IMG/VR virus record: IMGVR_UViG_3300037721_000031
Coordinates: 128,001-192,000 of that record
Source of the DNA: a virus
Lineage: Duplodnaviria > Caudoviricetes
DNA length: 64,000 nt
Strand: one strand, 5' to 3'
Below are positions 34,818-35,807 of the stretch, one piece after another. The translations under genes were made by a program, and so were the position numbers. Under the pieces are notes generated by a model. It was not told the origin of the DNA, did not search any database, and was given only the letters and a program-made list of their open reading frames with translations. Position 1 is the first letter of the stretch. Each line of letters begins with the position of its first letter.

Positions 34818-35807
34818 AAACAACCGTTACCGTACCACTATAGTTTTCACTACCGAGGATGACTTTTCTCAAATGCGACTACAGTCATCTTGGCTGTGCT
34901 AGCCATTTCTTTGGAGACTTCAACGATCTTCTATTAGGAAGACCTCCATCTATATAAATCCAAATACTCTCGTTTGTGGTCTGGACTATGCCTTCATCCA
35001 TTGTTACTCGGCGGCAATCATATCGGCATTGTCACTCCATTTTACTGGGGATATTTCCAATATAGCTATCCACCCTAGACAAAGCACATGTTGTTCATTC
35101 CAACAACACCCGCTCTTTAAGCCTACACTTGGATGATCTCCATCTAGTCTCTACACCTTCAAGAATAATCTACGTACCTTCACAGGTATGTGTATATCAT
35201 TACTAATTCAGATACTAAAGATACCGAGAGTCGAACTCGGACCATTCCACAGCGGAGTCTACCGCTTGACCTATATCTCTAGTACAGTGCTGTGTTCACC
35301 TTCTGAATTAATACATTCAATACATCAATAGCCGGAGGAGCCCTACTCCATGGACGAATCATAGGTTTCGAAGCTACTATCGTCTGTTTATTGTCATACC
35401 TGCCGGCATGACTCAACACTCTACGTTCTTTTAATCGCTACTGAAAAATTACTCAAGCTTGGCTCGGCGTTGACATGGTAAACTTATTACATAAATGGAT
35501 CATCACTTTTGGATGTTTCCATTTTGTTAGGTCCAAGTCTACTTTAGTGTTCGCCGAATTTGAAGATATTCACCTAACAGGGTATAGGATTCTCACCTAG
35601 TACGCTTAGAGTTTGACCTCAATCGTTTCCTGCTATTTTACCGTCTCTCGATTGCATCGTTTCGTACATAGCTTCTTTTTGAAGGAAGCTACATATATCC
35701 CCAACGCATTTTTCGGTGGTGCTCATGTTTCTGCTGGATAGTCATGACTCGTGCTCACATAAGTATTCGCGAATCACTAATACCCATTCAGCATAAGACG
35801 GTTATTT
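34818..35807 (-). ncRNA. Group I intron-like ribozyme within a ~990-nt RNA closed by a terminal helix
   Basis: P AAATTCGGCGAAC (35561-35549), Q GTCAACGCCGAGCCAAGC (35474-35457), R GAAGGTGTAGAGACTAG (from 35160), S AAGGCATAGTCCA (~34995-34983), P3 ATCTTC/GGAGAT, terminal AAATAACCGT/ACGGTTGTTT. Confidence 0.75.
35211..35285 (-). ncRNA. tRNA-like element (D arm and T arm, vestigial anticodon arm) inside the intron-like RNA
   Basis: 12-bp GTACTAGAGATA/TATCTTTAGTAT stem, GGTC-AAGCGGTA-GACT, CCGAG-TTCGACT-CTCGG; no CCA. Confidence 0.7.

Follow-up and report, generated by a model that had tools for sequence, protein, structure and literature searches.

What is a unit built like a tRNA, but with no anticodon arm, doing in a peripheral arm of a phage ribozyme? 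The question is raised by a stretch of 64,000 nucleotides (hereafter the window), which comprises bases 128001-192000 of a 266.5-kb IMG/VR virus record. The major head protein of this virus (742 aa) matches phrog_3231; it is 53% identical to that of Burkholderia phage FLC9, the closest cultured phage by this protein, and shares ~42% identity with its counterparts in Ralstonia phages RP12 and RP31. Because of these matches, the window phage is placed, by its head protein, among the jumbo phages of the phiKZ-like group. The locus belongs to a tRNA island, with the following landmarks.

32394-37825, minus strand: tRNA island, with tRNA calls and an HNH_3 gene
36990-37400, in the tRNA island: HNH_3 endonuclease gene
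34487-34806: tRNA scaffold with an insert, recognized by a strict cloverleaf descriptor

Seven tRNAs are called in the island by ARAGORN and one more by Rfam, at 36929-37004. An uninterrupted tRNA-Leu(UAA) is called by ARAGORN at 34257-34343, and CCA is encoded in all eight ARAGORN-called tRNAs of the phage. No ORF of at least 50 aa is present between 34480 and 35744, and the tRNA-like element lies in this interval. Its parts and the stems that enclose it are as follows.

35212-35285, minus strand: the whole tRNA-like element including its 12-bp closing stem, read from the sequence and matched by the Rfam tRNA model and the descriptor
35274-35280, minus strand: 5' strand of the acceptor stem, AGAGAUA, with 7/7 pairs to 35217-35223 (pair probability ~1.0)
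35217-35223, minus strand: 3' strand of the acceptor stem, UAUCUUU, from direct reading and the Rfam tRNA alignment
35281-35285, minus strand: acceptor extension GUACU, five pairs with 35212-35216 (AGUAU; pair probabilities 0.46-1.0)
35256-35271, minus strand: D arm, with a 4-bp stem GGUC/GACU (4/4) and an 8-nt loop AAGCGGUA
35241-35255, minus strand: linker of 15 nt, standing for position 26, the anticodon arm and the variable loop
35224-35240, minus strand: T arm CCGAG/UUCGACU/CUCGG, with 5/5 pairs
35303-35313, minus strand: 5' strand of the outer 11-bp stem, paired with 35201-35211 (pair probabilities 0.86-1.0)
35201-35211, minus strand: 3' strand of the outer 11-bp stem, paired with 35303-35313
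35286-35302, minus strand: bulge of 17 nt, or small hairpin (GGUG..CACU), separating the outer and acceptor stems on the 5' strand

The 12-bp acceptor-like stem of the original prediction was found where it had been placed, and is composed of a 7-bp acceptor stem and five further pairs (35285-35274 with 35223-35212). U8 and A9 occupy 35273-35272. The D arm (35271-35256) carries the GGTA-containing loop that had been described, with A14, R15, G18, G19 and A21 at their usual positions. The perfect TTCGA T arm is likewise present at 35240-35224, and its G53:C61, U54, U55, C56, R57 and A58 are canonical; besides those of the tRNA genes and the tRNA scaffold, it is the sole canonical T-arm hairpin in the window. 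All 16 stem pairs are formed, and the tertiary positions, including U8 and Y48, are canonical.

The anticodon arm, which had been called vestigial, is indeed reduced to a linker of 15 nt, compared with ~22-23 nt between the D and T stems in tRNA. In this linker, CC and GG can pair as a stub of 2-3 bp at most, and there is no anticodon arm of 5 bp and 7 nt. The linker also includes AUGGU, which resembles a normal 5-nt variable loop, as well as CCGCU, complementary to AGCGG of the D loop, and GCUGUG, complementary by eye to CACAGC in the 17-nt bulge. CCA is absent, as had been noted: after the discriminator A73 at 35216 comes GUA, and this triplet is paired with the 5' flank. The outer stem and the acceptor extension are joined without a gap on the 3' strand and give a rod of 23 bp, or 28 bp if the T stem is included. 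The acceptor end is closed by 16 further pairs (5 + 11), with no single-stranded leader or trailer. Lacking an anticodon arm, a CCA and free ends, the element is not a tRNA.

The relationship with tRNAs is evident at the level of statistics. The Rfam tRNA covariance model (RF00005) scores the element at 36.0 bits (35216-35280, minus strand; gathering threshold 29), a match seen only with relaxed filters and missed by the gathering-mode scan of the whole window. The E value is 1.5e-5 in a 1.35-kb search, and in the alignment 11 nt stand in for 18 anticodon-arm positions of the model. ARAGORN makes no tRNA call at the element. A strict cloverleaf descriptor gave eight matches in the whole 266-kb genome versus 0-1 in shuffled genomes; these matches correspond to five phage tRNAs, the scaffold at 34487-34806, the element itself and one likely chance match. 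The element is real and not a product of chance, and the sequence points clearly to its derivation from a tRNA.

The RNA that contains this element has been identified as a group I ribozyme, whose core comprises the following parts.

34831-35760, minus strand: group I intron-type ribozyme, recognized by the order of P, Q, R and S, the paired core and its relatives
35567-35562 with 35141-35136: P3, 6/6 paired
35558-35552 with 35469-35463: P4, 7/7 paired
35149-35145 with 34988-34984: P7, 5/5 paired
35135-35130 with 35000-34995: P8

The terminal G of the intron lies at 34831 and a putative 5' splice site follows U35761, where CUU|AUG can pair with CAUGAG, by eye, as in the related intron L008. 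Two related jumbo phages that bear the intron (G001 and G003) were found via the head protein, and the core shows colinear matches to both. The intron was not found in the genomes of FLC9, RP12, G002 and G004. The Rfam model Intron_gpI (RF00028) gives 22.8 bits in the window against a gathering threshold of 50, with the 3' half misaligned across inserts; the compact relative L008 reaches 39 bits with the same model (E = 1.8e-7). A scan for the Q element in IMG/VR yielded 74 distinct introns of the same type, and among 45 relatives there are 29 variants of P3 and 8 of P7, almost all of them fully paired. Because P3, P4 and P7 are fully paired in the window and covary in the relatives, the core is intact, and the host RNA is a genuine group I intron of the tRNA-gene type.

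About 50 of the 74 sampled relatives, including all those closely inspected, have the intron in the anticodon loop of a tRNA. Their usual host gene is tRNA-Leu(UAA), as in L008 and L009, the introns of the two related phages. This pattern agrees with the classes already described for group I introns of tRNA genes (10.1101/2020.01.27.920355). In the window, neither tRNA nor ORF exons were found flanking the intron, which lies 58 nt from the stop of an ORF (35819-36217) on its 5' side and 24 nt before the tRNA scaffold on its 3' side. By eye, a decayed tRNA-Leu half may be recognizable in the 5' flank. These observations on the sequence suggest a tRNA-Leu-type intron that has been separated from its tRNA in the window phage with its catalytic core intact. 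The GOLLD and ROOL models of Rfam gave no match in 34300-37900, even at E values up to 10.

Where in this ribozyme does the element sit? The original prediction had located it in a P6 insertion of ~290 nt, and homology mapping of P, Q, R and S leads to the same place, with an expansion of ~295 nt.

35161-35455, minus strand: L6 expansion of ~295 nt, three-branched, delimited by the fold and the Q-to-R distance
35457-35446 with 35171-35160: P6 closing helix

In the fold, the tRNA-like arm (35201-35313) is the middle branch of the three. Q and R are 312 nt apart in the window and 24-36 nt apart in most relatives, making P6 about tenfold longer than usual. This spacing is 77-125 nt in a jumbo-phage subgroup of the introns, and 483 and 661 nt in two introns where endonuclease-type ORFs are present (L021 and L067). 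Alignment with L008 and L009 shows that the arm is a block specific to the window intron. The L6 insert is single-copy, and no repeat of it exists within the genome.

A lack of conservation had been named in the original prediction as one half of what would refute it, and this half is partly borne out: the arm is missing from the two intron-bearing related phages and no homologue was found. Modules of a similar kind are recurrent but rare in introns. The ORF-free stretch of 1.35 kb had no blastn match among GenBank phages. In IMG/VR, exact and gapped DNA patterns taken from the element retrieved ordinary tRNAs or nothing, and in JGI metagenomes such patterns gave chance matches in coding DNA only. 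A covariance model built from the element found nothing in four related jumbo-phage genomes, and only normal tRNAs in 953 kb of phage tRNA-intron loci. A search for related loci gave no IMG/VR relative for the upstream ORF; its relatives are two proteins from Logan assemblies only, P0001 (91% identical) and P0002 (83%), which are the only closer relatives known.

Nested modules were surveyed in the 74 introns of the Q scan and in 112 from a scan for a P9 motif, ~186 in total. Two clear tRNA-like modules were detected among these phage introns, the window element and one in the intron L128 (2320-2412, minus strand), which belongs to the same family as the window intron. In the L128 module, the acceptor stem is 7/7 paired, the D arm is of class II and the T arm is perfect, with the same UUCGACU loop as the window element; its middle is a non-canonical segment of 44 nt. 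The module sits at the end of an 18-bp helix in another peripheral hairpin, located between the conserved GGUAGUC and UUGGCGUAA, and an exact-pattern search with it returned L128 only. A canonical T arm inside P8 of L009 constitutes a partial third case. For T arms inside intron cores, 2 were observed versus 0.3 expected from shuffles. The L128 module and the L009 T arm have no Rfam tRNA score at E <= 1, and therefore these two cases are resemblances at the level of the descriptor.

With respect to the source of the fragment, the tRNAs of the phage itself have been rejected, as no arm matches, and so have the missing tRNA-Leu exons, since the D arm of the element is of class I and that of tRNA-Leu of class II. 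Circular permutation was also discarded, the D arm preceding the T arm in the normal order.

The reading that we favor, at roughly even odds, is that the element is a captured tRNA fragment, which forms a closed, non-decoding helix cap and possibly a docking surface. A segment of a tRNA gene would have been captured into a P6 loop tolerant of insertions; a tRNA can be inserted into a loop because its two ends meet in one helix. The tRNA cluster with its homing endonuclease gene would have provided the setting for the capture, and the self-contained nature of the tRNA body would have favored the persistence of the insert. A tRNA body of class-I type, with acceptor, D arm and T arm, would then have lost its anticodon arm, and its ends would have been sealed in a helix. 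It would cap one arm of a lineage-specific P6 expansion and would be neither released nor aminoacylated. The cap would be a coaxial acceptor/T stack closed by the D-loop/T-loop elbow and set on a rod of ~28 bp. If the elbow forms, the T arm could be a substrate for the host enzymes that produce m5U54 and pseudouridine-55, and an RNA or protein that reads elbows could dock onto the flat face of the element.

A constraint on the top half and the elbow is suggested by the precise absence of the anticodon arm, the remodeled ends, the intact tertiary positions and the parallel in L128. The tolerance of P6 for insertions and the status of the arm as an insertion relative to G001 and G003 also speak for a cap. 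Against it stand the failure to find a homologue, the rarity of such modules (2 of ~186) and the unfavorable fold energies; moreover, in the absence of tRNA exons, the whole RNA could be under relaxed constraint.

The strongest alternative is a neutral relic: a fragment of a tRNA gene or pseudogene would be tolerated in a permissive P6 loop with no role of its own, and its clean stems would reflect a recent insertion and the passive need for an insert to fold back. We consider this a serious but less likely possibility, and favor the structural cap over a purely neutral relic. The element is a singleton, as expected for a relic, and the window intron is without its tRNA exons. P6 is very variable in length and accommodates unrelated inserts and ORFs in other introns; hypervariability is a known property of the P6 loop in the trnL(UAA) intron. 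Other rearranged pieces derived from tRNAs are present in the island, as is the HNH gene, and the cloverleaf is energetically disfavored. However, 16 of 16 stem pairs and the tertiary positions are intact and exactly the anticodon arm is gone, and neutral decay would be less selective. Plain insertion of a tRNA gene would not be expected to give 5 + 11 flanking pairs or an element that lacks CCA. L128 follows the same pattern, in which the top half and the D arm were kept, the anticodon region was lost and the helix was extended.

It could also be that the element descends from a tRNA but is not tRNA-shaped in the cell, being folded as a rod with the hairpins AGCGG/CCGCU and UGGA/UCCG, which we regard as unlikely. 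Nearest-neighbor folding gives a probability near 1 for the rod, ~0 for the D arm and ~0.27 for the T arm, and assigns 0.98 to a competing hairpin in which AGCGG of the D loop pairs with the CCGCU found in the linker. With the D and T arms imposed, the structure is 4.4 kcal/mol less stable, compared with a penalty of 0-2.4 for the eight ARAGORN-called tRNAs of the phage; the minimum free energy structure and the ensemble thus favor the alternative by a gap above that of any of these tRNAs. Nevertheless, the energy models used ignore the tertiary pairs between D loop and T loop and the effect of Mg2+, the same folding misfolds 4 of the 8 phage tRNAs, and the covariance model score is well over its threshold. 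The folding result lowers the confidence in the elbow without abolishing it.

A selected role of a different kind would be that of a tRNA tag, with the ribozyme as a domesticated RNA rather than an intron; this proposal seems to us quite improbable. The exon-less ribozyme and the scaffold at 34487-34806 would both carry handles read by a machinery that recognizes elbows, and the RNAs bearing such handles would be recognized, folded, modified, sorted or assembled. In a phiKZ-like phage, this machinery could include a route by which tRNAs exit the phage nucleus.

The element might instead be a processing signal, recognized by RNase P and RNase Z through its tRNA shape or by RNase III through the rod of 23-28 bp, so that the ribozyme would be cut in L6 or a small tRNA-like RNA would be freed as mascRNA is from MALAT1. 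The surrounding tRNA cluster is presumably transcribed as one polycistronic unit, both the acceptor/T stack and the elbow features recognized by RNase P are present, and the length of the rod would suffice for a dsRNA nuclease; the core of the ribozyme should survive opening in L6. The leader and trailer, however, are paired through 16 further pairs and there is no CCA. Because of this pairing, release by RNase P or RNase Z is unlikely, and neither a leader nor a 3' end would be available in single-stranded form to these nucleases or to the CCA-adding enzyme. Processing is, overall, very unlikely to be the role of the element.

A decoy or sponge for a host factor that binds tRNAs, or for a defense that targets them, is more remote still. 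The tRNA islands of phages have been linked to counter-defense. Known anticodon nucleases attack the anticodon loop, and toxins that modify 3' ends attack the CCA end; mimicry of these targets is excluded because the element has neither an anticodon loop nor a free CCA end. Moreover, the element occurs only once, as part of a larger RNA. The only candidates left for recognizing it are readers of the elbow or the T arm. Finally, we reject both a coincidental likeness and an intrinsic terminator, which a simple terminator scan flags at 35240-35224 (T-arm hairpin, then UAUCUUU): the tRNA model gives E = 1.5e-5 even after allowing for 4227 families, the descriptor is essentially absent in shuffled genomes, and the tract rich in U is paired, as the 3' strand of the acceptor stem, and lies well within a conserved ribozyme.

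What the element means depends on which of these accounts is correct. If the module has been selected, tRNA elbows would be reused as architectural or recognition parts of phage ribozymes, and they would offer a handle on the large RNAs that crowd the tRNA islands of jumbo phages. If it is a relic, it would show how tRNA fragments can seed new peripheral structure in a ribozyme, because the ends of a tRNA come together in a single helix. In both cases the context is of use, as the intron has been parted from its tRNA and yet its core is intact.

Units shaped like tRNAs are known within larger RNAs, including GOLLD, tmRNA, MALAT1 and the 3' ends of plant viruses. A search of the literature revealed no report of such a unit in a peripheral arm of a group I intron. 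In the GOLLD RNAs of phages, tRNAs are embedded in the linker region (bioRxiv 10.1101/2024.12.08.627333). The likeness consists of a unit in tRNA format placed within a large structured phage RNA beside a tRNA island. The units embedded in GOLLD are regular tRNAs with anticodon arms, whereas the window element has neither an anticodon arm nor a CCA, its ends are sealed, and its host RNA is a group I intron. With many introns of phage tRNA genes, the window intron has P, Q, R, S, P3, P4, P7 and the sequence of P9 in common. The relation found in tRNA-gene introns is inverted, with a tRNA-like unit inside the intron and no tRNA exons around it.

The mascRNA of MALAT1 is a tRNA-like cloverleaf whose anticodon arm is poor, and it forms part of a long non-coding RNA. 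Elements of this type have single-stranded flanks, are excised by RNase P and RNase Z and receive a CCA; the flanks of the window element, in contrast, are base-paired. The tRNA-like domain of tmRNA is also a top half without an anticodon arm within a larger RNA. It is made from free 5' and 3' ends, bears a CCA, is aminoacylated and has a reduced D arm, whereas the ends of the window element are internal and its D arm is complete. Among the tRNA genes of phage T4, the stable RNAs species 1 and 2 are small RNAs that do not decode. They are free-standing processed RNAs, in contrast to the window element, which is a module inside a ribozyme. T-loop motifs of 5 nt act as modules or docking surfaces in RNase P, T-box RNAs, rRNA and riboswitches. 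Unlike these isolated motifs, the window element is a whole acceptor/D/T body with sequence similarity at the level of tRNAs, which argues for its descent from a tRNA gene.

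A second, independent tRNA-like body has been found in another phage intron of the same family:

L128:2320-2412, minus strand: tRNA-like body in IMG/VR record IMGVR_UViG_3300020048_000120

This body caps an 18-bp helix that belongs to a peripheral hairpin on the 5' side of an intron in tRNA-Leu(UAA). The body comprises a class-II D arm, a non-canonical middle of 44 nt, and a T arm of sequence GUAAG/UUCGACU/CUUAC; it was called neither by ARAGORN nor by the Rfam tRNA model. A T arm was also identified in the intron of the related jumbo phage G001:

L009:1320-1336, minus strand: canonical T arm (UGCAG/UUCGAAU/CUGCG) at the end of intron P8

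It is preceded by a mini hairpin containing GG. The P6 of this intron (about 1400-1500) contains two hairpins with the loops UCAAGU and UCAAAU, which look like shortened T loops.

In the tRNA-like body of the window intron, the linker joining the D and T arms has two possible, competing partners. Positions 35251-35255 are complementary to the element's own D loop at 35262-35266 (CCGCU with AGCGG), and positions 35248-35253 to the adjoining bulged hairpin at 35291-35296 (GCUGUG with CACAGC). Because these pairings exclude each other, and each is incompatible with the cloverleaf, there are hints that the element may adopt alternative conformations.

The 22-nt P9 sequence GGTAGTGAAAACTATAGTGGTA is present as identical copies in at least 120 IMG/VR contigs (loci L171-L290). 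Three such copies lie inside 10 kb in one of these loci, L226, suggesting that several genes of one tRNA cluster may each contain an intron of this type. The introns of L262 and L288 have in common a conserved P6 expansion of ~145 nt, from which both ORF and tRNA-like features are absent; it is another structured insert, specific to a lineage.

Two further tRNA-related features were identified in the tRNA island of the window:

34487-34806, minus strand: tRNA scaffold with 272 nt between the D and T stems
36929-37004, minus strand: tRNA with a CAU anticodon (Rfam, 51.4 bits; no ARAGORN call)

The D and T arms of the scaffold are nearly identical to those of the adjoining tRNA-Thr (34389-34460), of which it looks like a paralogue with a large insert. 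The 5' end of the CAU tRNA overlaps the end of an HNH_3 endonuclease ORF (36990-37400) by ~15 nt, and tRNA-Ser(UGA) at 37739-37825 has an identical T arm.

The group I intron of the window (34831-35760, minus strand) has an intact core supported by covariation, and tRNA exons are absent from its flanks (35761-35818 and 34807-34830). Related introns interrupt tRNA-Leu(UAA) in G003 (L008) and G001 (L009); in the window, this gene is present and uninterrupted at 34257-34343. Judged by eye, the 5' flank of the window intron faintly resembles a decayed 5' half of tRNA-Leu.
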